This document shows, piece after piece, positions 8,801 through 53,310 of a DNA stretch of 64,000 nucleotides. The notes beneath the pieces are model-generated. The model had not been told where the DNA came from. It did no database searches and was given only the letters and a program-made list of their open reading frames with translations. A program made the position numbers and the translations under genes. The first letter of the stretch is position 1. The number at the start of each line of letters is the position of its first letter. The stretch comes from Tubulanus polymorphus (lineage: Eukaryota; Animalia; Nemertea): positions 7,572,655 to 7,636,654 of the forward strand of contig NC_134033.1 in the NCBI RefSeq assembly GCF_964204645.1. Direction: 5' to 3'.

Positions 8801-10322
8801 CAGTTAATTCTTTATTCAACGATTCAAAATCTCCATAAATTACAAATGGAACAATATTCTTAAATTTATGATTAGTAAATTTCAATTTATAATCTTTTTC
8901 TGTTGGCATTATTAATTTGCAAAAATCTTTATTATCACATAATTCTTTATGTTTTAATAATGTATTCTCAGTCATAAATTTAGATAAACATTTTCTACAT
9001 AGATAAATTTTATGATGATGATCACTTTCTGTTCTAAAGAATAAATCAATTTGTTTTAACCACATATAATGTTCATGTTCATCTTTTTTGTAATATAACA
9101 AATCTATAGCATTTTCATCATAATAATATTCTGTTAAATATAAAGCTTCCAATGTATAATCTTTAATATTTTCACCTTTTGTCTTTGGTAATTGCATTAA
9201 TTCGAATACATTTATTTTTAAATTATTAAATTTTTCTATTTTAGAAATCATTTTTATAGTTACTGGATATTGATCAATTTTATATAATGTTTCATATTTC
9301 CGATAATCTGTTATTCTACAAACATTTTCCCGTGTTGGATGTAAGCAACTAATAATTGACCATAGAAAACATTTATTATCTTCATTTTGAACATTTATTA
9401 CTGCTTTTGTTGTAAATGGTAATTTAATATAAGATGATGCTTTAATATCCTTTTCTGTTGTAAAGTTTGAATCATTTTCAAACATTGTTTTACTTTTTGA
9501 TGTTTTATTTCTTTTTGTATTATAAACATTTAAATCTAAATATATAATTTCATTCAATGTTAAGCCAGAACCCTCAAAATATCTTTCTTCAATATGACGT
9601 TTAAATTCATTAAATATTTTTTCTAACTTCTCTTTTATTTGTGTTTTTGAAATTATTTCTTCAGAGTGTGTTTGAATATTATAATTCATTTTTTCTTCTG
9701 ACTTTATAAAACTTACTTTCCCAGAGATACTAATTTTTGGATATTCAACATCTGTTATCAAATCTAGTATTTTTTCTATTATTTCATTAAATGTACTATA
9801 ATCTTCTATTGTTGTTCCTTTAAAAAATCTAAATATAATAGCTGCAGGACCAATTTTAATTTTACTATGTAATGTTTCTAAAATTTCAATTGTATCTTTT
9901 ATTTCTAGTGAATCAATATAATTTCTAACATTTTCCATGTAAGGGTTATTTGAAATGGATTTAGTTTTTGAAGTTGGCTTTTTTACTTTTTGAGGTTTAT
10001 CATCAAAATAATCTTTTCCTAAAACATTATTACTCAAATTTTGATGGTGTTTTTGTGATTCGAGATGTCTATTATAATTCCTTTTTACTATAAATTCATT
10101 ACAAACTTCACATTTTATTTCATCCACATTCATATTTTCTAATCTTTCTTTTCTTTCATTGGAATTTTCTGGAGTTTCAAAATCTATTACATTTTTTATA
10201 TGATTTGCAGTTTTTTCATGTCGTGTTTTATTAGATGTATCGACGTATTTTTTACAATATGTGCAATAATATTGATCTTTATTAACATTATTGTTTTCTG
10301 GCTGGTGTTCATTCTCCCCCAT
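5893..10322 (-). pseudogene. Mirror copy of Polinton A pPolB with N-terminal part of intein
   Basis: ORFs 7743-10322, 6753-7667, 6047-6841; TAC>TAA stop at 7743; 17-bp deletion at intein start. Confidence 0.93.
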
Positions 10323-10337
10323 TTATTAGGGAAAAAA

Positions 10338-10407
10338 ATTACTTGTGGTGATGAGTGGTGTCTCGTCATCTCGTCCTCTGATCTGAAAGCCAACTTTTCC
10401 AATGACT
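10338..10407 (-). repeat. Mirror copy of Polinton A left TIR
   Basis: Reverse complement of 16220-16289. Confidence 0.9.
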
Positions 10408-10894
10408 TGCGTGTAAGGTATTAAGTTTGGTGCAATGTCAACATTTGAATAAAGTTTATCTAGATTAATTCCTAACAGTTTAGCCATAGGTTTTTTAACT
10501 AAAAATTTATGTTGTTCATCTTTATCTAACTTTATTCTTACTTTATTATTGATATCACTTTTTAAAAATTTAATTACAAATCCAGCAGCCGCGCCCATTT
10601 TTGCCCTAGCTCTTCTATTAATTTCTTGCGCTAATGTTTCTAAATTATATAATCCTGGTCTTATAAATATATGATACCATTTATCGGCATTTCTATCAAA
10701 AATCATAAACAATCTATGTTCAATAGATTTACCCGATATATTATAAAAAGAATTACATAAACTTATATTAACTAATTTTAAATCAACACTATCTAATTAA
10801 ATTCTCTATCTAATTGTACTAGTAAATTATAAGATTTATAATTTGTAAGTCTTCCAGAATCAACCAATATTCTGTATTCTTTTAATTCCGCCAT
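10408..10894 (-). pseudogene. Mirror copy of Polinton B penton N-terminal part
   Basis: Same protein as 15733-16219. Confidence 0.8.
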
Positions 10895-11099
10895 TTATTT
10901 TACATATTTTCTTATTCGAAATCTATTTCATGATGCCCTTTTTCATTCTTACCTTTGTATACGAAATAGAAATCCCCAGAACATAATTCTTCTAAATCTT
11001 CACTTGATAATCTATGAAATCTATCCGGTAAATATGTTCTGAATTTATATGTATTTCCTTTTAATCCTTCATATTCTAAGTGTATAACTAATTTATCTC

Positions 11100-13668: not shown

Positions 13669-14099
13669 TTTAATACTAAATTTTTTTTTTAAATTGATTT
13701 TAGAAGTTCAATGATTTAAAAACGTATTATTTCAATCACACTTTACTAACACTTTTAATGTTTAAAAATCTAACTCATACAAATATAAATATTGAAATAA
13801 TGTTTAAAATATATCTATATATCTATTCTATAAGAGCTTGTTAATTACTCGTTACTTTTATATTGAATAATCTATCAATTTATATGTTATTCATATGTAT
13901 AAATATTTTAAGAGTAATAGGGGTTTAGTTGGTTCAGGTTAAAGGTTGAATGGTCGAGTTCATTAAAAAATAAATATTAAAAGGAATTTAAAACTATAAT
14001 ATATTTTCATAGCCGTGTGTATTTTAGTTAAATAATAGAATAATTATTATTATTTGAATATATTTGATTATATGAATTTGTGTGTTGTAAATAAATCAA

Positions 14100-15332
14100 T
14101 TGGTGCGGAATTCTAGATATTGCAGATGATTCAGATAGTGGTTACTTCTTTGTTGTAGATTTAGAATATCCTGAACATATTAAATTTAAATCTAGAAATC
14201 TATCATACTGTCCCGAACATAAAACTGTAACTCATGAAGAATTATCAAATTACCAAAAAAGAATTAAACCCGAAAATCATATTCATACAGAAAAGTTAAT
14301 GGTAACTCAAGAAGATAAAAAATATAATTATGTAGTACATTATAGAATGTTAAAGTTTTATCTAAAACAAGGAATGGTTCTAAAGAAAGTACATAGATAT
14401 ATTTCATTTAGTCAATATAAATGGTTAGAAAAATATATAGATTTTAACACCAAACAGAGAACTAAAGCTAAAACTGATTTCGAGAAAGATTTCTTCAAGT
14501 TAATGAACAATGCATTCTATGGTAAGACTTGTGAAAACATTAGAAATAGAAATGATATTGAGTTAGTTAGTAATGGTAAAAGGATAAGGCATTTACAATC
14601 ATACCTAAGTTTTTAGGTAACAGAATATTTGATGAAAATTTAGCTGCAGTTAAAATGAGAAGAACATCAATGAAACTTAATAAACCAATCTATGTTGGTG
14701 CTTCAGTTTTAGAAATATCAAAGCTATTAATGTATGAATTCTATTATAACGTATTACAACCTCATTTTGGAGAAAAACATATAGAAATCTTATATTTTGA
14801 TATTGACAGTTTCATATTAAAGATAAAAACTAATAACATAACAGATGATTTAAAAACATTAAAACATCATTTTGATTTCAGTAATTATCCTAAAGATCAT
14901 GAATTGTTTAGCAATGATAATAAAAAGCGACCCGGTAAATTCAAAGATGAATTAGGTGGTGAAGAAATGATAGAGTTCATTGGTATTAGATCCAAAATGT
15001 ATTAATATAAAACTAAAGAACATGAAGCTAAAAAGTTAAAAGGAATAACCAAAAGTGTAGTAGAAAAGAATATTCATTTCAAAGATTACATCAATTGTAT
15101 ATTCAAAGAAGAAGTTAGAAACCATAAGATGAGATGTTTAAGATCTGAAGATCATGAAATGTTTATTGAAGAGATAGAAAAGATAAGTCTAAACCCATTT
15201 GATGATAAAAGATATATTTTAGATGATGGAATTCACACAGTTGCGTATGTTTGCAATTTAGATGAATACTTAAAATTTAAAAGAGAAGAAACAAAAGAGA
15301 ATGAGGTTATGAAAAGAATTCTAACGTGTTAA
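14100..15332 (+). pseudogene. Polinton B pPolB, C-terminal part, intein-free
   Basis: VVDLEYP, FFKLMNNAFYGK, YFDIDS, GIRSKMY, LNPFDDKR; frameshift ~14600 and stop at 15003. Confidence 0.92.
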
Positions 15333-16304: not shown

Positions 16305-19300
16305 ATGGGGGAGAATGAACACCAGCCAGAAAACAATAATGTTAATAAAGATCAATATTATTGCACAGATTGTAAAAAATACGTCGATACATCTAATAAA
16401 ACACGACATGAAAAAACTGCAAATCATATAAAAAATGTAATAGATTTTGAAACTCCAGAAAATTCCAATGAAAGAAAAGAAAGATTAGAAAATATGAATG
16501 TGGATGAAATAAAATGTGAAGTTTGTAATGAATTTATAGTAAAAAGGAATTATAATAGACATCTCGAATCACAAAAACACCATCAAAATTTGAGTAATAA
16601 TGTTTTAGGAAAAGATTATTTTGATGATAAACCTCAAAAAGTAAAAAAGCCAACTTCAAAAACTAAATCCATTTCAAATAAACCTTACATGGAAAATGTT
16701 AGAAATTATATTGATTCACTAGAAATAAAAGATACTATTGAAATTTTAGAAACATTACATAGTAAAATTGGTCCTGCAGCTATTATATTTAGATTTTTTA
16801 AAGGAACAACAATAGAAGATTATAGTACATTTAATGAAATAATAGAAAAAATACTAGATTTGATAACAGATGTTGAATATCCAAAAATTAGTATCTCTGG
16901 GAAAGTAAGTTTTATAAAGTCAGAAGAAAAAATGAATTATAATATTCAAACACACTCTAAAGAAATAATTTCAAAAACACAAATAAAAGAGAAGTTAGAA
17001 AAAATATTTAATGAATTTAAACGTCATATTGAAGAAAGATATTTTGAGGGTTCTGGCTTAACATTGAATGAAATTATATATTTAGATTTAAATGTTTATA
17101 ATACAAAAAGAAATAAAACATCAAAAAGTAAAACAATGTTTGAAAATGATTCAAACTTTACAACAGAAAAGGATATTAAAGCATCATCTTATATTAAATT
17201 ACCATTTACAACAAAAGCAGTAATAAATGTTCAAAATGAAGATAATAAATGTTTTCTATGGTCAATTATTAGTTGCTTACATCCAACACAGGAAAATGTT
17301 TGTAAAATAACAGATTATCGGAAATATGAAACATTATATAAAATTGATCAATATCCAGTAACTATAAAAATGATTTCTAAAATAGAAAAATTTAATAATT
17401 TAAAAATAAACGTATTCGAATTAATGCAATTACCAAAGACAAAAGGTGAAAATATTAAAGATTATACATTGGAAGCTTTATATTTAACAGAATATTATGA
17501 TGATGAAAATGCTATAGATTTGTTATATTACAAAAAAGATGAACATGAACATTATATGTGGTTAAAACAAATTGATTTATTCTTTAGAACAGAAAGTGAT
17601 CATCATCATAAAATTTATCTATGTAGAAAATGTTTATCTAAATTTATGACTGAGAATACATTATTAAAACATAAAGAATTATGTGATAATAAAGATTTTT
17701 GCAAATTAATAATGCCAACAGAAAAAGATTATAAATTGAAATTTACTAATCATAAATTTAAGAATATTGTTCCATTTGTAATTTATGGAGATTTTGAATC
17801 GTTGAATAAAGAATTAACTGATCAAGATAGAAAAGAAATATATAACAAAAAGCAATTATTAAAATCAATGGATAAAGGAAATGAATTAAATGAAGACACA
17901 ATACAAGACCCACCAATTATAAATACAATTAAAAAAGTTCATCAAAGAGCTGCTGTTTTTGGAATTTATATAAAATCAAATTATCCCGAATTATATGAAA
18001 GTCAATATATTTCTTTTAGAGGTGAAAATGTAGTTAATGATTTTTGTGATAAAATGATTGAATTAGAAAGTGATTTTGCAAAATTATTAAACAAAAATAA
18101 AAGAATAGTTATGACAAAAGAAGATGAAATTGATTTTAATTATGCAACTCATTGTTGTTATTGTGAAAAACGTTTTTATTCATTTGATAAAAAAGTTAGA
18201 GATCATGATCATTTAAATTCAAAATATCGTGGAGCTGCTCATGAAGATTGCAATTTACAAGCTAAGAAAGTTAATTTCGTACCAATATTATTTCATAATT
18301 TATCAGGCTATGATACCCATCTATTTATAAAACAATTATCGGGACAATTGGGCGCAATTAATCAAGAAATAGAAGAATATAATGCTATGAATGGTGTAAA
18401 TGTAAGAAAATATGATTTTAAACTATTAGCTAAAACATCTGAAAATTATATTTCATTTCAATTTGGTTGCATTAGATTTTTAGATTCTTATAGATTTCTA
18501 GCAAGTTCATTAGATAATTTATCAAAAAGTTTAGTTGATAATGATTTTGTTATAACTCGATATTATTATCCAAATGAACAAGATTTTAAATTATTGAGAT
18601 ATAAAGGTGCAATTCCTTATTCATTTTATAAAACACACAATGATTTTAATGTAACAGAATTATTAAAAGATCAATTTTATGATCAATTAAAAGAGGAGTA
18701 TGTGAAAGACGAAGTGTTTAATAGAACATTAAATATTTGGAACCATTTTAAGATGAAAAATCATGGTAAATTAGTTGATTTATATTTAAAATCAGATGTT
18801 ATGATATTGGCTGACATATTTGAAAAATTTAGAGAAGTTAATTTGAATCATTTTAATGTTGATCCTTGTTATTGCTACTCTAGTCCTGGTTTAACCTGGC
18901 AATATGGTTTAAAATATACAAATGTAGAATTAGATTTATTAAAAGAACCAGATATGGTTTTATTATTTGAAAAATCAATTAGAGGTGGAATTAGTGGTGT
19001 TATGGGAGATAGGTATTTTAAAGCAAATGATGAATACAAATTATTATATATTGACGCCAATAATTTATATGGCTGGGCAATGATGCAACCCCAACCATAT
19101 AAAAATTTTATATTAACAGAAGTTGAAAATGATTATAAAACTAATTGGGAAAGCGCAATTATGAGTTTAGAAGACGAAGCTCCAATTGGTTATTTCCTTG
19201 TAGTTGATTTAGAATATCCTGAAAATATAAAGTTTAAAACAAGAAACTTACCTTATTGCCCAGAACATTTAACTGTAGATGATAGTTATTTAAGTGAATA

Positions 19301-20736
19301 CCAGAAGAAAATAAAACCGAAAGATCATGTTTTTACAGAAAAATTAATACTTACTCAAAATAATAAATACAATTATATTGTTCATTATAGAATGTTAAAA
19401 TTTTATCTAAAACAAGGAATGAAATTAAAGAAAGTACATAGATATATCGAATTTAATCAATCGAAGTGGTTAGAAAAATATATAGATTTCAATACTCAAC
19501 AGAGAACAATATCAAAAACAGATTTTGAAAAAGATTTCTTCAAATTAATGAATAATAGTTTTTATGGTAAAACATGTGAAATATTAGAAATAGAAATGAT
19601 ATTGAATTAGTAAATAATTCTGAACGATTAAGACATTTACAATCAAGTCCTAGACATTTAGGAAATAAAAGATTTGAAGATTATTTAACAGCAGTTAAAT
19701 TAAAAAGAACGTCAATGAAATTTAATAAACCTATATTCATTGGTTCAACTGTTTTAGAAGTATCAAAATTATTAATGTATGATTTTTATTATAATGTTTT
19801 ACAACCACTTTTTGGGGAAAAGCATATTGAAATATTATATTTTGATTCTGTAACAGCTGACACCCCAATATTATTAAAATGTAATGATAAAATATTGATA
19901 AGAAGAATTTCAGAAATAATTCCAAAACAAAATGAATGTTATATTTCATATGGTGAAAAAGAATCAATACAAATAAATGGATTAATGGATGTATGGACAA
20001 GAAATGGATGGAAAAAATTAAAGAATATTATTAAGCATAAAACAAATAAGAAAATCTATAGAGTTAGAACTAAATTAGGGTTCGTTGATGTTACAGAAGA
20101 TCATAGTTTAATTAAACGAAATGGTGATGAAATAAAACCAACTGATATTGGAGACGAATTATTACATAAAAGATTTTTCCAAAGAATGAATCATATGTCA
20201 TTTGATGAAATAATTGATAATATTTATAACATAGAACCCGAAACATTAGAAGAAAAAGAATATTTTATCAAAGGATTTTTCATGGGAGATGGTTCAGCAG
20301 GTGTGTATAATTATGTTTGGGGTAATAAATATTGCTGGTATTTATGCAATCAAGACTTAAAATTATTAGAAAGAATTAAGAAATTCTCTGAAGAAGTTTA
20401 TTCACATAAAACATTCAAAATCATAGATGTTATGAAATCATCGCAATGTTATAGAATACATGTGAATAATCCTAAAGATTTTGCTATAAAATATGATGAC
20501 GAATTCTATATTCATGCAATAGTGAAAAGTAAAAGTAAAAGTAATAGTTGTTCCAGATAATGTATTAAATGCAAAAAAATAATTTAAGAAAGTGGTTCTT
20601 CATTGGATTCTATGCCGCAGATGGCACTAAAAAATTTACAAAGGATAAAAAGATAACCTTTGCACAGAAAGGAAAAGTTGCTATATCAGGATTAAATATA
20701 TTATGCAGTTCATTAGGATTTAATATGAATATAGAA
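16305..20736 (+). pseudogene. Polinton A protein-primed DNA polymerase B (N-extein plus first ~297 codons of intein)
   Basis: ExoI YGDFES, ExoII FHNLSGYD, ExoIII YLKSDV, motif A YIDANNLYGWAM, motif B KLMNNSFYGK, YFD; 1-nt deletion ~19580. Confidence 0.95.
19847..20736 (+). other. Intein N-terminal part with LAGLIDADG homing endonuclease
   Basis: Block A SVTADTPI, block B VTEDHSL, FIKGFFMGDG and (after a frameshift ~20575) FFIGFYAADG. Confidence 0.92.
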
Positions 20737-21535
20737 ATATAGCTGCAAAGCAGCGATAACGGGTTTTCTGCACAGTCTTTGAATCCTGTTCAATGGTTAA
20801 CACAGTTTTATAAGAGGAAGCTCGACAGACAGTCAATTAGACCTTCTTGAAACCATGGACAACTGGACTTGATGTCCTATTTGACTCTGGAAAATCGACT
20901 GTTAGGCGATAATTACTCTTTATGATTTCGACAAAGCATTTGATAAGGTACAACATCAGCCATTACTAAACAAGGCTATTAGGAAACAGTATCAATGATA
21001 GGTTGCCGAAATGGCTCAGCATTATATCTGAACGAAAACTTGTAGCCGAAATCAACGGAACGCCTCATCTTGGAATAAGTCGGTCTAACTAGTGGAGTCA
21101 CGCAAGGTAGTATCCTAAGTCGTCTTCTAATGTCCTGACAAATGACATACACAGTAATCCAAAATATACCAGACCGAGTAAATTTCCAAAACGACCTTAC
21201 CACACTGTTCGACCAAAAAACTTAATGTTCCGATAAAACCACGGGGACAAAACCAAAATTATGAATTGTCGCCGGTGACAAAACCAAAATAATGAATTGT
21301 CACGGGCGACAAAACAAAAATAATGAATTGTCGAGGGCGATAAAACCAAAATAATGAATTGTCGCGGGCGATAAAACCACAAATAATGAATTGTCGCGGG
21401 CGTTAAAACCAAAATATTGAATTGTCGCGGCGATAAAACCAAAATAATGAATTGTCGCGGACGACAAAAACAAAATATTGAATTGTTGCGTGCAACAAAA
21501 CCAGAATAATGAATTGTCGCGGGCGACAAAACCAA

Positions 21536-22941
21536 ACTAGGGGTCCAGGGACACCATGCTCACTTGGGAAGTGGTTTCAAATGCTCAACAATCTAACAAT
21601 TTCAATACACAACGCCCTCTAGTGACCATATACAAAAACCAATGACCTTGAAACCCACCACAATCATAGTACATGTGAGCAGCTATGATTTTGTAATTGA
21701 TTGTGAAATATGCCTCGTTACCAATTTAATATGGAAATACTAAGTTATTCTACTATTCAACGCCCCTGGTGACCATATGCAAAACCCCATGACCTTAAAA
21801 CTCACCACAATTGTAGTACATGTCATGAAATACAACTTTGCAATTGATCATAGTAACAAAATATGCCTAGGTACCAATCTAATAAGGAAATACTAAGCCA
21901 TTCTACTATTCAACGCCCCCTGGTGACTATATGGAATAACTAATGTCCTTAAAAACTCACCACAATCATAGACGATGTCATGATCTACAACTTTGCAATG
22001 GATCATGGTAACAAACTATGCCTAGGTACCAATCTAATAAGGAAAAACTAAGCTTTTCTACTATTCAACGCCCCCTGGTGACTATATGGAATAACTAATG
22101 TCCTTAAAAACTCACAACAATCATAGACGATATCATGAACTACAACTTCGCAATTGATCATGGTAACAAAATATGCCTTGGTACAAATATAATATAGCAA
22201 TACTAAGTTATTGTATTATTCAACGCCCCCTGATGGCCACATACTAAAACCAATGACCTTGAAACTCACCAAAATCATAGAACACGTTATGGGCTACAAC
22301 TTTCTAATTGAATATAGTAACACAATATGCTTAGGTATCGATTTAATGTGGAAAAACTTTTTCCCACCTACGAATGAGTACTGATGACACCAAGATGGCC
22401 GCCAATTGCGTCATAATTAGCTGATCAAAAATACCTGTCCCAGGTATAAAATATCCCTCTCTAAGGAATACCCATCAGCAATTGCAATGAGAAATGGCAA
22501 ACCAGTAGGGAGCTACAGGACCTAGAATTCTGGCCTAAATTGACATTTTTGGGCACTAAAAAGGTCATAGGACGGCCATCTTGAGTCAGATCGACCCAAT
22601 TTTCTTATGCTGATGGGCCTTTGGTAGATTCAAATATAAACGAAAGATCAAGGTAATTGATCAAAGCGTCTTCAAAATTTCCCACGAAAACTTCGAAAAT
22701 GTTTAAAAAGTGCTGATTTTGGCAAACAACAATGGCTGCCAGTCGGCCATCTTTAATCTGACAGGGCCTGTTTTTGGGCTGACGATGTGTCTAGGGTAGA
22801 TACATGTATACACCAAATATCAAGACATTACCTTGAAGCGTCTTCAAAACTTCCCAAAATAACTGGATTCCGTCTATAGACGGACGGACGGACGAAAAGT
22901 GAACACAATAGCCCGCTGCGACTAAAGTCGCAAGTGGACTG
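21536..22941 (-). mobile_element. 1.4-kb HINE nested in a satellite unit
   Basis: Reverse complement of 2151-3560; 5' fragments recur at ~24650-24793 and ~26120-26263. Confidence 0.72.
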
Positions 22942-25900
22942 AAAAAGAATTGTCGCGGGCGACAAAACCAAACTAATGAATTGTCGCGGGTGATAAAACC
23001 AAAATATTGAATTGTCGCGGGCGACAAAACCAAACTAATGAATTGTCGCGGGCGATAAAACAAAAATATTGAATTGTCGCGGGCGATAAAACCAAAATAA
23101 TGAATTGTCTCGGGCGATAAAACCAAAATAATGAATTGTCGGGGCGACAAAACCAAAATAATGAATTGTCGCGGGTGATAAAACCAAAATATTGAATTGT
23201 CGCGGGCGACAAAACCAAACTAATGAATTGTCGCGGGCGATAAAACAAAAATATTGAATTGTCGCGGGCGATAAAACCAAAATAATGAATTGTCTCGGGC
23301 GATAAAACCAAAATTATGAATAGTCGGGGCGACAAAACCAAAATAATGAATTGTCGCGGGCGACAAAACCAAAATAATGAATTATTGCGGGCGATAAAAC
23401 CAAAATATTGAATTGTCGCGGGCGATAAAACCAAAATAATGAATTGTCGCGGGCAACAAAACCAAAATATTGAATTGTCGCAGGCGACAAAACCAAAAAA
23501 AAATTGTCGCGGGTGACAAAAACAAAGTATAAAACGAAAATAATGAATTGTCGCGGGCGTCAAAACCAAAAACAAGAATTGTCGCGGGCGACAAAACCAA
23601 AATAATGAATTGTCGCTGGAGATAAAACCAAAAAAAGAATTGTCGGGGCGACAAAACCAAAATAATGAATTGTCGCGGGCGATAAAACCAAAATAATGAA
23701 TTGTCGCGGGCGATAAAACCAAAATAATGAATTGTCGCGGGCGACAAAACCAAAATGATGAATTGTTGCGGGCGACAAAACCAAAATAACGAATTGTCAC
23801 GGGCGATAAAACAGTAATAATGAATTGTCGCGGGCGATAAAACCAAGATAATGAATTTTCTCACGCTACAAAACCAAAATAACGAATTGTCACGGGCGAT
23901 AAAACAGTAATAATGAATTGTCGCGGGCGATAAAACCAAAATATTGAATTGTCGCGGGCGACAAAAACAAAATATAAAACCAAAATAATGAATTGTCGAA
24001 GGCGACAAAACCAAAATAATGCATTGTCGCTGGCGATAAAACCAAAGTAATGAATTGTCGTGGGCGATAAAACCAAAATAATGAATTGTCGCGGGCGACA
24101 AAATCAAAATCATTGTTTTCTTGCGTTATTTTTGTTTTGTCGTAATGTCGCCCTTATTTGCATATTCGTGTTTTTTTATCTTATCAGCCACCATACTAAA
24201 GCTTTAAGGTCGCGTAAAACTCGATAAACACTTCAAGCGACACAGCGAACGATCTCCTTTCCCCCACAGCGAACACTTACTCCGAATGTCAAGTATGAGT
24301 CCAGCATACGGATAGGAGTGTGTTATATACTTGTATTTAGTAAATACCTTGTGGATTTGACAATGATCGGTATGTACTGTAGGAAATATAGAGTATTGAT
24401 GGTATTGATATAGAGGGCCGCGGCCGAATAAAGTAATATATTGTTTTATTTTGATACCTCGTCGACATAACAGCTTTTCTCCGCTATATCTCTTCGGCGT
24501 GTTTAGTTTAGGCCTACGACTCCACGCTACGACTCCCCGGTACACTTATGATTTATCTTAGTAAAACTAAATTAACTGCTTGACGCCCGCAGCCAAATCA
24601 CTGGTAGTAATAAATTAATTTGTACTCGATTTGATTCTCAGAATGCCAGTTTTTGGGCTGACGATGTGTCTAGGGTAGATACATGTATAAACCAAATATC
24701 AAGACATTACCTTGAAGCGTCTTCAAAACTTCCCAAAATAACTGGATTCCGTCTATGGACGGACGGACGGACGAAAAGTGAACACAATAGCCCGTAATGA
24801 ATTGTCGCTGGAGATAAAACCAAAGTAATGAATTGTCGTGGGCGATAAAACCAAAATATTGAATTGTCGCGGGCGACAAAACCAAACTAATGAATTGTCG
24901 CGGCAACAAAACCAAAAAAAGAATTGTCGGGGCGCGACAAAACCAAAATGGTGAATTGTCCAGGCGACAAGATCAAAATGGTGAATTGTCTCGGGCGACA
25001 AAACAAAAATAATGAATTGTCGTGGGCGATAAAACCAAAATAATGAATTATCGCGGGCGATAAAACCAAAATATTGAATTGTCACGGTTGATAAAACCAA
25101 AATAATGAATTGTCGCGGGCGACAAAACCAAAATATTGAATTGTCGCGGGCGACGAAACCAAAATATTGAATTGTCGCCGGCGATAAAACCAAAATAATG
25201 AATTGTCGCGGGCGACAAAACCAAAATGATGAATTGTCGCGGGCGACAAAACCAAAATAACGAATTGTCACGGGCGATAAAACAGTAATAATGAATTGTC
25301 GCGGGCGATAAAACCAAGATAATGAATTTTCTCACGCTACAAAACCAAAATAATGAATTATCACGGGCGATAAAACCAAAATATTGAATTGTCGCAGGCG
25401 ATAAAACCAAAATATTGAATTGTCGCGGGCGACAAAAACAAAATATAAAACCAAAATAATGAATTGTCGAAGGCGACAAAACCAAAATAATGCATTGTCG
25501 CTGGCGATAAAACCAAAGTAATGAATTGTCGTGGGCGATAAAACCAAAATAATGAATTGTCGCGGGCGACAAAATCAAAATCATTGTTTTCTTGCGTTAT
25601 TTTAGTTTTGTCGTAATGTCGCCCTTATTTGCATATTCGTGTTTTTTTATCTTATCAGCCACCATACTAAAGCTTTAAGGTCGCGTAAAACTCGATAAAC
25701 ACTTCAAGCGACACAGCGAACGATCTCCTTTCCCCCACAGCGAACACTTACTCCGAATGTCAAGTATGAGTCCAGCACACGGATAGGAGTGTGTTATATA
25801 CTTGTATTTAGTAAATACCTTGTGGATTTGACAATGATCGGTATGTACTGTAGGAAATATAGAGTATTGATGGTATTGATATAGAGGGCCGCGGCCGAAT

Positions 25901-27497
25901 AAAGTAATATATTGTTTTATTTTGATACCTCGTCGACATAACAGCTTTTCTCCGCTATATCTCTTCGGCGTGTTTAGTTTAGGCCTACGACTCCACGCTA
26001 CGACTCCCCGGTACACTTATGATTTATCTTAGTAAAACTAAATTAACTCCTTGACGCCCGCAGCCAAATCACTGGTAGTAATAAATTAATTTGTACTCGA
26101 TTTGATTCTCAGAATGCCAGTTTTTGGGCTGACGATGTGTCTAGGGTAGATACATGTATAAACCAAATATCAAGACATTACCTTGAAGCGTCTTCAAAAC
26201 TTCCCAAAATAACTGGATTCCGTCTATGGACGGACGGACGGACGAAAAGTGAACACAATAGCCCGTAATGAATTGTCGCTGGAGATAAAACCAAAGTAAT
26301 GAATTGTCGTGGGCGATAAAACCAAAATATTGAATTGTCGCGGGCGACAAAACCAAACTAATGAATTGTCGCGGCAACAAAACCAAAAAAAGAATTGTCG
26401 GGGCGACAAAACCAAAATAATGAATTGTCGCGGGCGACAAAACCAAAATGGTGAATTGTCCAGGCGACAAGATCAAAATGGTGAATTGTCTCGGGCGACA
26501 AAACAAAAATAATGAATTGTCGTGGGCGATAAAACCAAAATAATGAATTATCGCGGGCGATAAAACCAAAATATTGAATTGTCACGGTTGATAAAACCAA
26601 AATAATGAATTGTCGCGGGCGTCAAAACCAAAATATTGAATTGTCGCGGGCGACGAAACCAAAATATTGAATTGTCGCGGGCGATAAAACCAAAATAATG
26701 AATTGTCGCGGGCGACAAAACCAAAATGATGAATTGTCGCGGGCGACAAAACCAAAATAACGAATTGTCACGGGCGATAAAACAGTAATAATGAATTGTC
26801 GCGGGCGATAAAACCAAGATAATGAATTTTCTCACGCTACAAAACCAAAATAATGAATTATCGCGGGCGATAAAACCAAAATATTGAATTGTCGCAGGCG
26901 ATAAAACCAAAATATTGAATTGTCGCGGGCGACAAAAACAAAATATAAAACCAAAATAATGAATTGTCGAAGGCGACAAAACCAAAATAATGCATTGTCG
27001 CTGGCGATAAAACCAAAGTAATGAATTGTCGTGGGCGATAAAACCAAAATAATGAATTATCGCGGGCGATAAAACCAAAATATTGAATTGTCACGGTTGA
27101 TAAAACCAAAATAATGAATTGTCGCGGGCGACAAAACCAAAATATTGAATTGTCGCGGGCGACGAAACCAAAATATTGAATTGTCGCAGGCGACAAAACC
27201 AAAATAATGAATTGTCGCGAGAGACAAAACCAAAATAATGAATTATCGCGGGCGATAAAACCAAAATATTGAATTGTTGCGGGCGATAAAATCTAAATAT
27301 TGAATTGTCGCGGGCGACAAAACCAAAAAAGAAAAATTTCACGGGCGACAAAAACAAAATATAAAACCAAAATAATGAATTGTTGCGGGCGACAAAACCA
27401 AAATAATGCATTGTCGCTGGCGATAAAACTAAAGTAATGAATTGTCGTGGGCGATAAAACCAAAATAATGTATCGTCGCGGGCGACAAAATCAAAAT
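22942..27497. repeat. 31-bp satellite arrays alternating with a ~690-bp block (higher-order period ~1471 bp)
   Basis: Arrays 22942-24110, 24795-25580, 26266-27497; block copies at 24204 and 25675. Confidence 0.92.
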
Positions 27498-29919
27498 CAT
27501 TGTATTCTCGCGTTATTTTAGTTTTGTCGTAATGTCGCCCTTATTTGCATATTCGTGTTATTTATCTTATCAGCCACCATACTAAAGCTTTAAGGTCGCC
27601 TAAAACTCGATAAACACTTCAAGCGACACAGCGAACGATCTCCTTTCCCCCACAGCGAACGCTTACTCCGAATGTCAAGTGTGAGCCCAGCATACGGATA
27701 GGAGTGTGTTATATACTTGTATTTAGTGAATACCTTGTGGATTTGACAATGATCGGTATGTACTGTAGGAAATATAGAGTATCGATGGTATTGATAAAGA
27801 GGGCCGCGGCCGAATAAAGTAATATGTTCTTTTATTTTGATACCTCGTCGACATAACAGCTTTTCTCCGCTATATCTCTTCGGCGTGTTTAGTTTAGGCC
27901 TACGACTCCCCGGTACACTTATGATTTATCTTAGTAAAAACACGGTAAATTTGGTAAAGAAAAATAGGTATCGCTAAATTAACTGCTTGACGCCCGCAGC
28001 CAAATCACTGGTAGTAATAAATTAATTTGTACTCGATTTGATTCTCAGAATGAGAGAAACTCGCAGCTGATTCCCGGAACGACGATGTAGTGACACACGT
28101 CGATTTGTCGATGTTTACGGCTCGACAGTGCTTTTAAAATCTAAAGTAGTAAATTTCCTGTGTATCAGTAATATAATTTGATGAGGAAAATGGGTTACTG
28201 TTAAAATTAGTTTTTAAAAACCGCGACAGAATGTGCAATCTTTCGGTAATAAATTTGTTAATTTATGCTTGAATTGATAATCGATGTGATAAGAAACGTG
28301 CGGTAGATTTCGGAAAGACGACTTAGAAAAACATGTCGGCTCTTTGAATGGGGCTCAATTTTCGAAGTTTACGGCCCGACAGTGCTTTTGTAACGTTGAT
28401 TCTTCAAAATTCGCACGGAGTATTTGTAGATCGAACTGAGCTGAATGATATCAGACGGATTGTATCGGCAACAGCGGTAATGTAAAAAAGCCTATGTCCT
28501 TTTGACAAAAAATGTGTGGAAAAAAATAATAATAATAATAATAACTATAGCTGCAAAGCAGCGATAACGGGTTTTCTGCACAGTCTTAGAATCCTGTTCA
28601 ACGGTGGATTTCGACGAAGCATTTGATAAGGCACAACATCAGCCATTACTAAACAGGCTATTAGGAAACAGTATCAATGATAGGTCGCCAAAATGGCTCA
28701 GCAGTTATCTCTGAACGAAAACTTGTAGCCGAAATCAACGGAACGCCTCATCTTGGAATAAGTCGGTCAAACTAGTGGAGTCACGCAAGGTAGTATCCTA
28801 AGTTGTCTTCTGTTTAATGTCCTGACAAATGACATACACAGTAATCCAACATATACCACACCGAGTAAATTTCCAAATCGACCTTAACACGCTGTTCGAC
28901 CAAAAAACTTAATGTTCCAACAAGAAAATCTTGTTCGAATGAAAATAATTCTGTTTGATCGAACAATACGCTTTTTGCTTGAACCAAAAATTTTCTTCAT
29001 TCTGACAAAAAATGTGTTCGAATAAAAAGCTATGTTATTGTTGAAATGAAAAATTTTAAGTCCCGGCAAAAAAATTTGGTCGAGCGAAAACAACTTTTTC
29101 GAACGAATGTTTGAATGAAAACAATTCTGTTCGATTGAACGAAATACTTCATACTTTCGGTTTGGAGAAAAAATTTTTTTCAATATACTTGTTCGAACGA
29201 AAAACTTAATGTTCTGACAAGAAAATTCTGTTCAAATTAAAAAAGATTCTGTTCAATTGAACGATTGTTCGAACGAAAAACCTTTCGTTTGGACAAAAAA
29301 AAGTTTGTTCATGTTTGTTCTTACGATTTTTTCAAATTGGTTCAATCGTATAGAATATTATTGGTTCGAACGAAATAAATTTTGTTCCGACGAAAGAATT
29401 TTCAAGCGAAAGGTCTTTTGAACGAAAAAAAAGATATTTCTGGTGCTCCGCAGTAACTTAAAGCCGGATGTAGGTTGGTCTTGTGACACGATGCGATCCT
29501 CGCGTTGCATCGCAAGTTTCAGTGCAAGTCGGTTGCAATACGATTGTGTGCGACTAGTTTCTGCCAGTCGCAAGAGCGCGTCGGTTGGTTGTGACAGTCG
29601 TGTCGCGTCGCAGAAAGTAGAACACGTACGACTCCATGTGACTGGCGTTGCTGAAAGATGAGGACGCCAGTGATATGACGACTGAGTTTCAATTCGTCAA
29701 AACGTCACGTTGTGTCAACATATTTATGTTGACTTGATGCGATATATCGCGATATATCGACATAATTATGGCGACTTGTCGTGTTTGAACGCGACAACTC
29801 GAGGCCCTTTATCGCTTCCGTAGATCTTTCATTAAGTAGGATCACTTGAATGATCGCTTTAATATCACTTTAAAAAAAAAAGAATCTGCCAAAATGACCT
29901 TAATATTCGACACTATATG

Positions 29920-30336
29920 TACAGAAGCGATAAGGGGCCTCGAGATGTCGCGTTCCAACTCGACAAGTCGCCATATTTATGTCGACATACCGCGATATAT
30001 CGCGTCAAGTCGACATGAATATGTCGATATATCGTGACGTTTTGACGACATATTTCGTTTTCTCGACCATTTTCCTCGCGACAAGTCGACATATTCATGA
30101 CGACTTGAAACTCAGTCGTCATATTACTAGCGTCCTCATCTTACATTTAGACATGTCTTCAAATGACAGCTTGTCCCGTGGAAAATGAGCAAAAAAAGCG
30201 AGATTTGTTGTGAAAACGTCACGATATGTAGACATATTCATGTGGACTTGACGCGATATATCGCGATATATCGACATAAATATGGTGACTTGTCGAGTTT
30301 GAACGCGACAACTCGAGGCCCTTTATCGCTTCCGTA
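29920..30336. mobile_element. MITE-like foldback element; partial extra copy at ~29655-29822
   Basis: TIRs TAC(A/G)GAAGCGATAA(G/A)GGGCCTCGAG... of over 100 bp; flanks CTATATG/CTATATC. Confidence 0.6.
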
Positions 30337-30424
30337 CTATATCAGATTAATCGACTTCAAAATAGGCGAAAGCATAAGTCTTTATTACGTTATTAATTGG
30401 CCTAATTATTCAAAAGCTAATAAA

Positions 30425-31775
30425 GTGGGCGACAAAACCAAAAAATTAATTGTCGCTGGCGGTAAAACCAAAATATTGAATTGTCACGGGCGATAAAACC
30501 AAAATAATGAATTGTCGCTGGCGATAAAACCAAAATATTGAATTGTCGCAGGCGATAAAGCCAAAATATTGAATTGTCGCGTGGGACAAAACCAAAACAT
30601 TGAATTGTCGCGGGCGACAAAACCAAACTAATGAATTGTCGCGGGCGATAAAACCAAAATAATGAATTGTCGCGGGCGATAAAACCAAAATAATGAATTG
30701 TCGCTGGTGATAAAACCAAAATATTGAATTGTCGCAGGCGATAAAACCGCGACAAAAAAAAAATTGTCGAGGGCGATAAAACCAAAATAATGAATTGTCG
30801 CAAGCGATAAAACCAAAATAATAAATTGTCGCGGGCGATAAAACCAAAATAATGAATTGTCGCGGGCGACCAAACCAAAAAAAAAAATTGTCGCGGGCGA
30901 CAAAAACAAAATATAAAACCAAAAGAAGAATTGTCGCGGGCGTCAAAACCAAAATAATGAATTGTCGCTGGAGATAAAACCAAAGTAATGAATTGTCGTG
31001 GGAGATAAAACCAAAATATTGAATTGTCGCGGGCGACAAAACCAAACTAATGAATTGTCGCGGGCGACAAAACCAAAATGATGAATTGTCTCGGGCGACA
31101 AAACCAAAATAATGAATTGTCGCGGGCGATAAAACCAAAAAAATGAATTATAGCGGGCGATAAAACCAAAATATTGAATTGTCGCGGGCGATTAAACCAA
31201 AATAATGAATTGTCGCTGGCGACAATACCAATATATTGAATTGTCCCGGGAGATAAAACCAAAATATTGAATTGTCGCGGGCGACAAAACCAAACTAATG
31301 AATTGTCGCGGGCGACAAAACCAAAATGATGAATTGTCTCGGGCGACAAAACCAAAATAATGAATTGTCGCGGGCGATAAAACCAAAAAATGAATTATAG
31401 CGGGCGATAAAACCAAAATATTGAATTGTCGCGGGCGATTAAAACAAAATAATGAATTGTCGCTGGCGACAATACCAATATATTGAATTGTCCCGGGCGA
31501 CAAAACCAAAAAAAAGAATTGTCCCGGGCGACTAAAACAAAATATAAAACCAAAATAATGAATTGTCACGGGCGTCAAAACCAAAATAATGAATTGTCGC
31601 GGGCGATAAAACCAAAATATTGAATTGTCGTGGGCGACAAAACCAAAATATTGATTTGTCGCGGGTGACAAAACCAAATTAATGAATTGTCGCGGGCGAT
31701 AAATTCAAAATAATGAGTTGTCGCGGGCGATAAAACCGAAATAATGAATTGTCGCGGGCGACAAAACCAAAATTA
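30425..31775. repeat. 31-bp satellite array
   Basis: Same consensus as the other arrays. Confidence 0.93.
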
Positions 31776-33114
31776 TTGTTTTGTCGCGTTATTTTAGTTT
31801 TGTCGTTTTGTCATAATATCGCCCTCATTTGCATATACGTGTTTTTTTACGCATGGCCCTTATCAGCCACCATACTAAAGCCTTAAGGTCGCGTAAAACT
31901 CGATAAACACTTCAAGCGACACAGCGAACGATCTCCTTTCACCTTCAGCGAACGCTTAACCTAGTAGAGGCTAGAGGCTACTAGCCTATGTAGGCCTATG
32001 TATATGCGTAGGCCTAACATCCGGACAGATTGGTCGTAGGCCTATTGAATTTAACAACCCACCTAAATATCGTAAATTTTGTTTTGAAGTTCAATCCAAT
32101 GAGTCCGTTAATAAACGCAACAATTGTACTGTGTTTGTTTGATACAGTAAAGCTCAGTACCGGTAGGCCTAAAGCCGCGTCAAACTCGATAAACACTTCA
32201 AGCGACACAGCGAACGATCCCTTTCCCCCACAGCGAACGCTTACTCCGAATGTCAAGTGTGAGTCCAGCATACGGATAGGAGTGTGTTATATACTTGTAT
32301 TTAGTAAATACCTTGTGCATTTGAATATGATCGGTATGTACTGTAGGAAATATAGAGTATTGATGGTATTGATATAGAGGTTGAAGCCCGCGGCCGAAAA
32401 AAGTAATATATTCTTTTATTTTGATACCTCGTCGACATAACAGCTTTTCTCCGCTATATCTCTTCGGCGTGTTTAGTTTAGGCCTACGATTCCCCGGTAC
32501 ACTAAAGATTTATCTTAGTAAATACACGGTTAATTCGGTAAAGAGAAATAGGTATTGTTATACTAACTCCTTGAAACCCGCAGCCAAATCACTGGTAGTA
32601 ATAAATTAATTTGTACTCGATTTGATTCTCATGATGAGGAGAAACTCGCAGCTGATCTCCGGAACGACGATGTAGTAACACACGTCGATTCGTCGATGTT
32701 TACGGCTCGACAGTGCTTTTAAAATCTAAAGTAGTCAATTTCCAGTGTATCGGTAATATGATTTGATGAGGAAAATGGGCTATTGTTAAAATCACTGTTT
32801 GAAGACCGCGACTGAATTTGAAGTCAATAAATTAGTTCATTTATACTTGAATTGATAATCGAAGTGACAGTCGGCCTGCGGGTTGATTTCGGGATGACGA
32901 CTCGAAAAACATGTCGCCCCATTGAATGGGGCTAAATTTTCGATGTTTACGGCCCGACAGCGCTTTTGTAACGATGATTCGTGAAAAAACACGCGGGCTA
33001 TTTGTAGATCTCAGTGAGCTGAACGATATTATATGGATTGTATATGAAACAGCGGTAAGGTAACAAAGCCTATGTTCTTTTGGTAAAAATAGTGTGGAAG
33101 AAAATAATAATAAT

Positions 33115-33281
33115 AATAATCACGCGGATATCAATAGGGTTTTCTGTGAAATAACAGAAAACCCTAATAATAAGAAACACGCGAATCTCAATAGGGTTTT
33201 CTGTGATGTAACAGAAAACCCTAATAATAAGAAACACGCGAATCTCAATAGGGTTTTCTGTGATGTAACAGAAAACCCTAA
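33115..33281. repeat. Three 57-bp units, each carrying the Helentron terminal hairpin
   Basis: CACGCG at 33121, 33178, 33235; AGGGTTTTCTG-N8-CAGAAAACCCT. Confidence 0.85.
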
Positions 33282-33446
33282 TTAATTAAACCTAAACCAA
33301 ATTGTTTTAATTTAAGGCATGTAGAAAAAGAATTAACAGAAGAAGTTAAAGATTTATTTGAAATATATAACCCAACTGACTATGTTTATGATTTATCAAC
33401 AGATGATGGAACATTCAATTCTGGGTTCCCATTAATCCAAAAAAAT
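33282..33446 (+). other. Intein C-terminal part (blocks F and G)
   Basis: Manual translation ...DYVYDLSTDDGTFNSGFPLIQKN then TDS; not shown in the ORF track. Confidence 0.92.
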
Positions 33447-33902
33447 ACTGACAGTTACATACTAAAAATCAAGACAAATGACATAACAAAAGACTTAAAA
33501 ACATTAAAACATCATTTTGATTTTAGCAATTATCCCAAAGATCATGAACTATTTAGCAATGATAATAAAAAGATTCCTGATAAATTTAAAGATGAATTAG
33601 GGGGTGATGAAATGATTGAATTTGTTGGGATAAGAAGTAAAATGTATAGTTACAGAACAAAAGATCATGAAGCTAAAAAGTTAAAAGGAATAACAAAACA
33701 TGTGGTTGATAAACATATAGAATTTCAAGATTATATAAAGTGTTTATATAAATCAATTGTAATGAAACATAAAATGAATTGTTTAAGATCAGAAGATCAC
33801 GAGATGTACATTAATGAAGTTGAAAAAACTAGTTTGAATCCATTTGATGATAAAAGGCGTATTTTAGATGATGGTATAAAAACATTACCTTATGGTTATT
33901 AA
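33447..33902 (+). pseudogene. Polinton A pPolB C-extein
   Basis: TDSYILKIK...KFKDELGG..GIRSKMY...LNPFDDKR, open frame to the stop. Confidence 0.93.
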
Positions 33903-41672: not shown

Positions 41673-42920
41673 ATGAGTGGGAGTTATATAAGTCCTTCTA
41701 AGATTTCTAGAATATCTAATGCTATTAAAGCAGAAAGATCACATCATGTAATTACTCATAATCCTTCAAATATTAATCCCGATGAAACTTTATATGTTAG
41801 AATTCCTAGATTAACACAAAATACTTTTTATGTTCCAAATAGTATTTATTTATCAGCTGATATAAAAGTAACCGGTCATGATAATAATTATGTTGTTGAT
41901 AATGTTGGGAGATATTTGATTAAAAAATTAACTATAAAGATTGGTCCAGAAACAGTTTTCTCATTAGATGATTATAATTTATTTGCACATTATAAAGATT
42001 TATGGTTAACTAAAGAAAATAGAAATAATATGATATTTCAAGGCATCCAATCAGAAATCCATAATAAATTAAGATCAGGAGCTAATGACGCAATAGTAAC
42101 TCGTGCCACTGATAATTTGATTAAAAAGATTTATGGAAGCAAATATAAAATTCCATGAGACTTTGAATTGATAAATAATAATGCACCTTTATATAAATAT
42201 GTAATTCAAGAAGATATTATATTTGAGATAACATTTGCTCCTGTAAATGAAATTGTATTATCTAGCGTTGTTAAAGATATGGGTTATAAATTATCAAATA
42301 TATGTTTAGAATATGACACAGTAACTAATGAAAATATTGCTAGCACAATTCAAACTCAATACAATCAAGGATTTTCATTATTATATGATTATATTGATAA
42401 ATTTAAAACTGTAACTATTAATGCAAATGATGAAATAATTAATGAGAATATTAACTTCCCAAGAAGATCTATTAAAGGTATATCAATATTTTTTACCATT
42501 GCAACATATTCTAATGACGCAATAAATGTTGATAATTATTATAATCCTGAAATAACAAAAGTAGAAATAACTATCGAAGGAATAGCAAATAAAATATTTT
42601 GTCAAGGAATGAGAATGATAGATCAGTGGCCAGAAATTAGAAAACATTTTATGAATGAAAAAGTAACATCATTTGAAAATTGTAATATTAATCAAATTGA
42701 TTATTATACCGGTAATAAATATGCATTATGGTTAGATTTTAGAACAACAGAGGATAATTCATTACATGGTTCTGGAAAAAAACTACAAAACACTAAAGAT
42801 GGAATACAATTATTCATGACAAAGAATGAAGGAATCAAAAATTTCAAAATGCACATTTATATTATATCTGACGCACAATTAAATATTGTAAATTCACAAA
42901 TAGATAGTATTCAATATTAG
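41673..42920 (+). pseudogene. Major capsid protein (double jelly-roll), single in-frame stop at 42156
   Basis: ~415 codons in one frame, NPSNINPDETLYVRIP and C-terminal YIISDAQLNI; upstream of integrase and ATPase. Confidence 0.8.
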
Positions 42921-42950: not shown

Positions 42951-44083
42951 ATGGGTGGTAAAAAAACTCCTAATACTAAAGAACAATATTTAAGAAATTT
43001 ATATTACAACCCTGAGAGTTCGGTTGCTTATTCTTCTACTAAAAATATATGGCGTCAAGTAAAACAAGATAAATTAGATAAGATAATCCCACAAAATTTA
43101 GTTAAATATAAAGATATAAATGAATTTATGTTAGAACAACCAACATACACAACACATAAAAAAATTGTTAGAAAATATAAAACTCGTAAAACTATGGTAA
43201 GTTATGTAGATCAACAGTGAGTGGCAAGGAGATTTAATTGATATGAAAAATGTTAAGAAAGATAATGATGATTATTGGTGGATACTGAATATAATTGATA
43301 TTTTTAGTCGTTATGTATGGAGCTTCCCACTTTATAGAAAAGATGCTGTACAAACATCAAATGTTTTAAGAAAATTTCTTTCGGATGATAAACTAAAACC
43401 AGAAAAAATACAATTCGATGATGGGAAAGAGTTTGATAATTCACTTGTTCATGAACTCTTAGATAATCATAATATTAAACATTTTTCAACAAAATCGGAT
43501 AAAAAAGCAGCAGTTGTTGAACGATTTAATAGAACATTAAGAACAAGAATGTGGAAATATTTTACAGCAAATAATACTTTTAAATGGATTGATGTTTTAC
43601 CACAATTGATAGAAGGATATAATAATTCTTATCATTCTTCTATTGGAATGAAACCTATTGATGCTAGAAAACCTGAAAATGCTGAAATTGTTTGGAATAA
43701 TTTATATGGAGCATTTCTTGTAGATTATTTTGGTCAACCTAAATTTAAAGTTGGTCAAAATGTTAGAATTTCTAAGTATAAAAAGATATTTGACAAAGGA
43801 TACGATCGAAATTTTACTAGGGAAATATATAAAATAAAAAAAGGTAATAACAACAAAACCATATGTCTATAAATTAGAAGATTTAGATGGTGAAGAAGTT
43901 GATGGCTACTTTTACGAAGAAGAATTAAGTTTAACTACTGAAAATCTAGAACAAGAATATAAAATTGAAAAAGTATTAAAAACAAAAACTATTAAAAGAA
44001 AAAAATATTCTTTAGTAAAATGGGTTGGATGGCCAGATAAATTCAATGAATGGATATTATCAAGTAAAATTAAAAATATATAA
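42951..44083 (+). pseudogene. Retroviral-type (rve) integrase with C-terminal chromodomain
   Basis: WQGDLID, QFDDGKEF, VERFNRT; YKIEKV...VKWVGWP..FNEW; frameshifts ~43220 and ~43840. Confidence 0.93.
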
Positions 44084-44692
44084 ATGAATAAGGAATTATT
44101 TATATTTGAGCCTCATAATATGTTAATTTCTGGCGTAACAAATTGTGGAAAAACTTATTTTATATTAAATTTATTAGAAACTGTTTATAAAAACTATTTT
44201 GATAATATAGTATTATTTTGTCCAACATATGAATTTAATCAAACTTATGATAGAAATATTACTAGAAATAATAAATTTATTATATTAGATCCTAAAACAG
44301 TAAAAGAAAATTTAGATAATTGTATAAAAATAGCAATTGATATTTATAAAGGATCAAATACATTATTCATTATAGATGATTGTGCTAATCTACATGATTC
44401 AAAAGTTAGAGAGAGTGAGTTATGCTATTTAGCTTTTTCTGGCAGACATTTTGGGATAACAACTTGGGTTTTAAATCAAAAATATAATTCAATTGTTAAA
44501 GACTTTAGAGAAAACATTAGATTTCTAGTTTTATTCTTCAATAAAGATAGAAAATCGATGAAAAATGCACTTGAGGAAAATGATATTATTCCACATGATT
44601 TACATAATGAATATATGGATAAGTTGAAAAATATTAAAAGATCAAAATTACTATTTAGATTACAACACCCATTTAAATATGAATTTATTTAA
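44084..44692 (+). CDS. A32/FtsK-like DNA packaging ATPase
   Basis: Walker A GVTNCGKT, Walker B FIIDD, GRH, LNQ. Confidence 0.93.
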   Translation: MNKELFIFEPHNMLISGVTNCGKTYFILNLLETVYKNYFDNIVLFCPTYEFNQTYDRNITRNNKFIILDPKTVKENLDNCIKIAIDIYKGSNTLFIIDDCANLHDSKVRESELCYLAFSGRHFGITTWVLNQKYNSIVKDFRENIRFLVLFFNKDRKSMKNALEENDIIPHDLHNEYMDKLKNIKRSKLLFRLQHPFKYEFI

Positions 44693-51572: not shown

Positions 51573-51593
51573 TTTCTTATCACGATTTAAGGA

Positions 51594-53132: not shown

Positions 53133-53134
53133 AT

Positions 53135-53310
<176 letters not shown>

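Follow-up and report, generated by a model that had tools for sequence, protein, structure and literature searches.

A broken LAGLIDADG intein in the DNA polymerase of a Polinton and its likely kinship with giant-virus inteins

The stretch of DNA analysed here (64 kb, hereafter the window) contains a Polinton/Maverick element whose DNA polymerase, a protein-primed one of family B (pPolB), is interrupted in its catalytic motif C by an intein of the LAGLIDADG type at the site known as pol-c. The copy in the window is broken, and we consider it probable that it belongs to a Polinton-specific clade of inteins which likely stems from the polymerases of giant viruses and is likely maintained through homing from filled copies into empty ones. 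The intein allele as such is known; the class of host protein and the type of element are ones for which we found no description of it, and there is population evidence of its mobility.

Results

The intein in the polymerase of the window

The interrupted polymerase gene, together with the DNA that splits it, consists of the following parts.

16305..19846, plus strand: pPolB N-extein, with zinc fingers, exonuclease, an endonuclease-VII/HNH-like insert, motifs A and B and the end YFD (PF03175, translation)
19847..20736, plus strand: intein N-part, with Ser1, TEDH and LAGLIDADG motifs 1 and 2 (TIGR01445; 62-72% identity to the intein of the homologue P0001, 43% to the Mimivirus intein)
20737..33281, no strand assigned: host-type insert of 12.5 kb, GC content 0.39 versus 0.23-0.26, with tandem arrays of 31 bp and 155 bp, a high-copy repeat at its left end and 57-bp palindromic repeats at its right end
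33282..33446, plus strand: intein C-part, with block F VYDL and the end LIQKN (64% identity to amino acids 302-354 of the P0001 intein, E 3.8e-16)
33447..33902, plus strand: pPolB C-extein, starting with TDS (Thr+1 and the catalytic Asp of motif C; 84% identity to amino acids 1182-1331 of the intein-free P0417)

The polymerase itself matches PF03175 above cut-off (E 3.4e-17). Its motif C breaks off after YFD in the six-frame translation and continues with SVTADTP, the intein Ser1 being encoded at 19847, followed by the block B motif TEDH (20093-20104), the first LAGLIDADG motif FIKGFFMGDG (20264-20293) and, in a different frame, the second motif FFIGFYAADG (20596-20625). The C-terminal end, VYDLSTDDGTF…LIQKN/TDS, is reached at 33446. 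These features, the two intervals that carry them and a joined length of about 350 amino acids had been proposed in a first reading of the sequence (the original prediction) and are borne out by the intact intein of P0001, whose 354 amino acids are covered by three window pieces (amino acids 1-227 at 62%, 248-300 at 72% and 302-354 at 64% identity; E 2.6e-94 for the first two jointly and 3.8e-16 for the third). The Hint and LAGLIDADG matches on which that prediction had made itself dependent were likewise found: the N-part scores 33.6 bits for TIGR01445 intein_Nterm, which exceeds the curated threshold of 24.5 bits, and Pfam Intein_splicing and LAGLIDADG_3 match the window pieces, both under cut-off. 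The insertion is by its YxD/TDS site, and by its closest kin being other pol-c inteins, an allele of the pol-c intein.

Ser1, the block B TxxH, the terminal Asn and Thr+1 are all present in the pieces, so the residues of the splicing chemistry are intact, as had been claimed. The penultimate residue is indeed Lys, not the usual but non-obligatory His; it is, however, no special feature of the window intein, given that KN ends 92 and HN ends 82 of the 214 inteins extracted here, that Mimivirus has Lys as well, and that His, Lys and Ser occupy the position in five, two and one of eight full relatives, respectively. The description of the intein as full-length holds for its content and fails for its integrity. 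Frame breaks lie near 19580-19610 in the extein and near 20530-20580 in the intein, and because of these and the 12.5-kb insert the window copy cannot make a product and is, judged by its sequence, dead.

Inteins at the same site in other Polinton polymerases

A search with the intein N-part yielded 169 proteins among 1294 candidates (120 listed) and 1715 representatives (150 listed), and searches with the extein and with the P0305 intein added P0299, P0305, P0444 and P0445. Among the 266 distinct proteins listed, the exteins are RNA-primed family B DNA polymerases (PolBs) in 196 cases and protein-primed ones in 10, with 60 unassigned. Altogether, 14 other pPolB clusters (90% identity), originating from JGI, ENA and NCBI, have an intein at the same site; seven of these inteins are uninterrupted, with 337-354 amino acids, and the rest are fragments or broken. 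Intact and in frame at YxD/TDS are those of P0001, P0004/P0270/P0275, P0005, P0006, P0305 with six members of its cluster, P0444 and P0445. The latter two, P0444 and P0445, lack the motif C Tyr before the intein (VSSD/ and VASD/), the intein itself still being intact.

Identity between the pPolB intein lineages is only 46-66%. Ser1, TEDH, both LAGLIDADG Asp residues, the terminal Asn and Thr+1 are nonetheless conserved in all eight full inteins that were tabulated, PF14890 is matched above cut-off in P0005 and P0305 and PF14528 in six of the seven intact pPolBs scanned, and no complete intein devoid of a nuclease was seen among the pPolB matches. An AlphaFold model of P0275 (42-row alignment) reaches a pLDDT (the predicted score of the local distance difference test) of 81-98 across the intein, and its best structure matches are TliVMA (E 2.5e-16), PhoVMA, PI-PkoII, PI-PfuI and PI-SceI. 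The intact relatives are thus, for this one model, predicted to fold like known homing inteins, sharing with them the Hint domain and the two-motif LAGLIDADG fold, whereas identity to these proteins is 10-15% and their host proteins and organisms are different ones.

The 32 loci of a metagenome scan comprise one pPolB (L001, 4.2 kb, without gene context), 29 of the RNA-primed type by junction or best match and two weak ones. Scans of viral contigs with P0001, the intein alignment and P0006 as queries found no relative, and neither did scans of prokaryote genomes; a junction-pattern scan of the viral contigs gave four loci, all of them RNA-primed PolBs. Two further observations concern the search results. 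Close inteins reside in the type II topoisomerases P0047, P0062, P0091, P0096 and P0098 (PF00204/PF00521), at a non-allelic site after D, and P0295 is a Polinton-type pPolB filed in UniRef under Sulfurimonas sp., probably owing to eukaryotic contamination of the bin.

Relationship to giant-virus inteins

The intein tree comprises 49 rows, of which 12 are pPolB inteins (four with the N-part only, the one of the window among them). The 37 other rows, 26 best-scoring and 11 spread, with Mimivirus included, contain 36 that were picked from 135 clusters of inteins with 300-400 amino acids. Apart from midpoint rooting, the trees are unrooted. The 12 pPolB rows form one clade (support 100/100), whose sister, at 98/83, consists of 13 inteins of RNA-primed PolBs; the pPolB clade is also recovered in a FastTree of 168 rows (support 99). 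Most of the sister inteins end in GFPLIVKN-like motifs, and this unusual C-terminal GFPL is common to the pPolB inteins and the giant-virus sister group. Loci of the sister type lie in a giant-virus setting, with genes for minor capsid P11, ribonucleotide reductase and ubiquitin hydrolase as neighbours (four loci, 39 open reading frames (ORFs)), and three of the four viral-contig junction matches bear a GVMAG label.

The resemblance to Mimivirus that had been pointed out in the original prediction is real: its PolB (P0516) reads YGD/SVTGDTP…IVKN/TDS, with an intein of 351 amino acids that is 43% identical to the window N-part over 215 amino acids. In the 49-row tree, the Mimivirus intein falls outside the sister group of the pPolB inteins. 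The proposed jump from an RNA-primed viral PolB to a protein-primed one is supported by the sister relationship, although Mimivirus does not represent the sister lineage. The Polinton clade thus likely derives from the RNA-primed PolB of a giant virus, and its nesting within the unrooted tree suggests that the capture proceeded from giant virus to Polinton. The jump is an old one that is common to many Polinton lineages and not particular to the element in the window.

A special position is taken by P0006. The exteins of this pPolB share no more than 22-31% identity with the others, yet its intein shares 46-49% with theirs and groups with those of the window and P0001 at 99/92 in the 49-row tree, a gap in identity that favours lateral movement or a second capture. 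From their Pfam scores, P0006 would be Alpha-like and the window pPolB Beta-like (terms after PMC8502044).

Filled and empty sites

Empty sites are frequent close to the window polymerase. Its 120 best pPolB relatives divide into three with a filled site, 86 with an empty one and 31 whose sequence does not include it, and the closest of them, P0284 (81%), is empty. An empty site also exists within the window itself:

14098..15257, plus strand: second, distinct pPolB copy with an empty intein site at 14801/14802 (YFD/IDS), 79% nucleotide identity, its 5' part inverted at 11094-13659

The boundaries of the intein are exact and in frame when the filled P0270 is compared with the empty P0273, and when the window is compared with P0284, P0417 and its own empty copy. 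In an extein tree of 30 rows, the eight filled rows need eight changes of state, and six of the eight have an empty sister tip.

Both states also occur within single clusters. Nine members of a 121-member cluster were examined, of which five are filled, one is empty and three end short of the site; here the flanks of P0270 (filled) and P0273 (empty) are identical at 398 of 400 (99.5%) and 169 of 169 residues (100%). Fifteen listed members of a 136-member cluster, the P0305 family, with contigs of up to 1 Mb, are filled in seven cases, empty in six and too short in two. Compared with the six empty members, P0305 has 8-9 differences in 20 amino acids at the site versus 14-56 in 885-1171 amino acids elsewhere (Fisher p 5e-6 to 1e-10), a pattern that points either to co-conversion or to nuclease-resistant empty sites, both of which would imply an active nuclease. 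The empty sites of P0409-P0416 from this cluster come in three forms, namely YFD/TDA, YGD/TDA and YTD/CDS, which are suggestive of nuclease escape.

In raw reads that carry the same species label and make up about 12% of the run X6, the mean depth amounts to 303 for the extein, 471 immediately ahead of the junction and 243 for the intein, and half of the reads just before the junction match the letters of the window's empty copy. Since a depth of 243 would correspond to a single copy only in a genome of 8 Mb, the intein is probably multi-copy in these reads.

Discussion

How the intein may splice, spread and persist

The conserved residues and the model of P0275 predict class 1 splicing for the intact copies, in which an acyl shift at Ser1, helped by Thr and His of block B, would be followed by the attack of Thr+1 and the cyclisation of Asn. 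Splicing is predicted to restore YxDTDS, which polymerase function should need, so that the insert would cost the element little. The LAGLIDADG nuclease, in turn, would cut the empty site in a sister copy from its own family, and repair on the template of a filled copy would bring in the intein together with some flanking codons. As to the origin, a single old capture could have occurred in a cell that harboured a giant virus together with a Polinton; the YxDTDS motif, common to RNA-primed and protein-primed family B polymerases, would have allowed for it. From our point of view, the best reading is that this old capture has been maintained through cycles of homing and loss inside each lineage, and that the window copy decayed, was then split by the insertion of host repeats and was finally duplicated in part as an inverted copy.

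Several findings weigh against this reading and have to be set beside it. The 168-row FastTree places three other RNA-primed PolB inteins as the nearest sister of the pPolB clade; since the nearest sister thus differs between trees, the donor is given here only as a giant-virus PolB intein, with no virus named. A position of P0006 outside the other pPolB inteins was not rejected by the approximately unbiased (AU) test (p 0.18). Among the window-type polymerases, the intein and polymerase trees agree and the identities are alike (64% versus 59% for the window and P0001, 66% versus 67-70% for P0005 and P0305), which is compatible with prolonged vertical descent and equally with homing restricted to close relatives. 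The extein tree had been thinned within each state, which favours pairs of filled and empty sisters. Finally, the divergent tract of P0305 has no traced donor, and its best matches are still the empty alleles of its own cluster, so that selection for resistant sites explains the divergence as well.

Such findings lend some weight to the main rival, in which the intein was captured once long ago, still splices, no longer homes and has since been inherited passively with repeated precise loss; the agreement of the trees at similar depths of divergence speaks for it, as does the AU test, under which P0006 may still be sister to all others. However, unused homing nucleases are expected from the theory of the homing cycle to decay, and both nuclease motifs are intact in all eight full inteins, with no complete nuclease-less pPolB intein seen. 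Passive inheritance would also require many exact losses, in view of the 86 empty and three filled sites among the best 120 relatives, and it accounts poorly for the similarity of the P0006 intein within so dissimilar a polymerase and for the concentration of differences at the site in the P0305 family. We therefore regard it as unlikely. It is more improbable still that the donor was not a giant virus, be it that the source is unsampled or that the intein moved from Polintons to giant viruses: midpoint rooting, the long branch of the pPolB clade (0.54) next to a short sister link (0.068) and the 60 of 266 listed matches with no assigned host class leave some room for this, yet the inteins of RNA-primed PolBs are more numerous and more diverse (196 versus 10), surround the pPolB clade and share the GFPL motif with it.

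A different set of observations concerns the molecule itself and its host. An assembly chimera of giant-virus DNA and a Polinton could be suspected in a window that is rearranged and carries large mirror repeats, but the same junction in the 14 other clusters from three sources refutes it; moreover, the nearest relatives of the intein sit in pPolBs, its base composition matches that of the extein and the read depth is continuous into the intein, so that we consider a chimera practically negligible. The host is probably an animal, as suggested by a BEL/Pao remnant in the flank, satellite arrays and repeats of very high copy number; BEL/Pao retrotransposons are mostly found in animals. There is little probability that the same element instead resides in a protist or a fungus, for which it could be argued that no host gene lies within the window and that Beta-like PolBs occur outside animals too according to the text available of PMC8502044; the remnant, the satellites and a repeat at over 6500-fold depth speak against it.

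Going beyond homing and loss inside each lineage, one could imagine that Polintons took a homing intein of giant-virus origin into the nuclear genomes of animals, that it is multi-copy there and still spreading from filled to empty copies, and that it crossed between two deeply split types of pPolB. We put this forward tentatively, as a possibility that falls somewhat short of an even chance. If true, an animal genome would contain a true intein and, with it, a site-specific nuclease drive of natural origin, and the sequences would document at the molecular level that giant viruses and animal-type Polintons shared one cell.

Comparison with known systems

The Mimivirus PolB has been reported to carry a pol-c intein (Ogata et al., 2005, PMC549080). 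The Polinton inteins are like it in the YxD/TDS site, Ser1, terminal Asn and Thr+1, Thr and His of block B, the LAGLIDADG nuclease, the length of about 350 amino acids and, in the window, the KN end. They differ in their host, which is the pPolB of an integrated multi-copy element, where Mimivirus, a lytic giant virus, has its intein in an RNA-primed PolB. Viral-like DNA polymerase inteins were also described on scaffolds from the nuclear genomes of Klebsormidium, Tetrabaena and Hondaea (Gallot-Lavallee et al., 2023, PMC10710043). There, too, the intein enters a eukaryotic nuclear genome within the polymerase of an integrated virus, but the hosts are algae and a protist, the main text of that study mentions neither Polintons nor animals, and its section 8 reports no integrated family in which filled and empty alleles coexist.

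Nuclease domains within Polinton polymerases are known as HNH and VSR inserts (Jeong et al., bioRxiv 10.1101/2023.08.22.554363), and a single sentence in Krupovic et al. (2024, PMC11071308) suggests that such pPolB inserts result from intein invasions. No splicing domain is described for these inserts in the portions of the two texts at hand, whereas the inteins of the window and its relatives interrupt a catalytic motif and comprise a complete Hint module plus LAGLIDADG; the window pPolB has an HNH-like insert as well, at another place than the intein. In its accessible text, the survey of eukaryotic inteins by Green et al. (2018, PMC5784728) covers fungi, some protists, chloroplasts and giant viruses, assigns the inteins of viral polymerases to families of giant viruses and to viruses without classification, and names no animal nuclear intein or Polinton. 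The word 'intein' is absent from the adintovirus paper and from a 2026 preprint on small DNA viruses, and inteins are mentioned only generally in the available parts of PMC12220804, PMC13768754, PMC3671162 and PMC5718144. Within the open-licence full texts of PMC and bioRxiv, with Repbase, InBase, subscription journals and supplements lying outside this scope, no description of a Hint-domain intein in a Polinton polymerase was found. This agrees with the original prediction, which knew of no well-described case, the nearest approach being the one speculative sentence in the available text of PMC11071308, and that speculation has now become a testable case.

The intein allele has, as such, crossed into protein-primed polymerases and is present in at least 15 Polinton sequence clusters, which provides direct evidence at the sequence level that genes have passed from giant viruses to Polintons, the direction being that suggested by the intein tree. 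Matched filled and empty alleles are now at hand for studies of homing in a multi-copy family within a nuclear genome. A word of caution is in order for trees and annotations of pPolBs, which may hold an insert of 340 amino acids in motif C.

Structure of the window

The Polinton occupies an AT-rich block (GC 0.20-0.29) that is flanked by repeat-rich DNA with a GC of about 0.39. Pfam matches among the 41 ORFs scanned provide the gene set by which the element is identified as a Polinton/Maverick: besides the pPolB, the same low-GC block contains a retroviral-like integrase (rve), an A32-type packaging ATPase (Pox_A32) and a weak match to a capsid protein; a protease was not matched among these ORFs. 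Outside the polymerase, the window has the following features.

3560..11099, minus strand: inverted duplicate of 15528-23065, with the 5' part of the pPolB, the N-part of the intein (5890-6772; a gap of 17 bp lies where the intein begins) and the first portion of the insert; 98.9% identity over 7557 bp
41673..42920, plus strand: probable gene for the major capsid protein, interrupted by a stop (Capsid_N E 0.0024, under cut-off)
43210..43872, plus strand: retroviral-like integrase (rve E 1.2e-10)
44084..44692, plus strand: A32-type packaging ATPase (Pox_A32 E 2.5e-13)
51591..53311, plus strand: BEL/Pao retrotransposon remnant in the host flank, outside the Polinton (Peptidase_A17 E 4.1e-5, Integrase_H2C2 E 8e-11)

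At the left end of the 12.5-kb insert, the read depth rises from about 120 to over 6500. This end (20735-20800) carries a very high-copy short repeat and the right end (33108-33282) 57-bp repeats with a palindrome, the two having a 10-bp motif in common. No target-site duplication of more than 5 bp was found at the insert and no domain in a Pfam scan of its ORFs; a motif near 20910-20980 that by eye resembles a long interspersed nuclear element (LINE) has no Pfam match. One contig of the run X1 goes from 20732 into sequence that, by eye, agrees with the beginning of the C-part in 24 of 27 letters. Since it skips the insert, at least one other copy of the intein exists that does not contain the 12.5 kb.

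The inverted duplicate differs from the original by 29 substitutions and five gaps over the 5213 bp of its Polinton part. As it includes the insert junction, it was duplicated after the break and is not an independent copy of the intein; this left arm, from which the original prediction had suggested to repair the window intein, has breaks of its own in addition. The arms of the mirror repeat take in host repeats, and we thus also dismissed the idea that the repeat is a palindromic element consisting of the polymerase only. At its centre lies the second pPolB copy (11094-15257), which is 62-79% related, has its 5' part on the minus and its 3' part on the plus strand and reads YFDIDS in motif C.

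Overall, at least two Polinton copies are nested and rearranged in this region, which has large mirror repeats. Small ORFs lie upstream of the pPolB at 15362-15715, which by eye resembles a small DNA-binding protein and has no Pfam match, and at 10326-10796/15831-16301. The segment 35751-37262 is repeated at 46765-48217, and the block of capsid, integrase and ATPase occurs twice in inverted orientation, at 41808-44442 and 48634-51269, with 92% identity.

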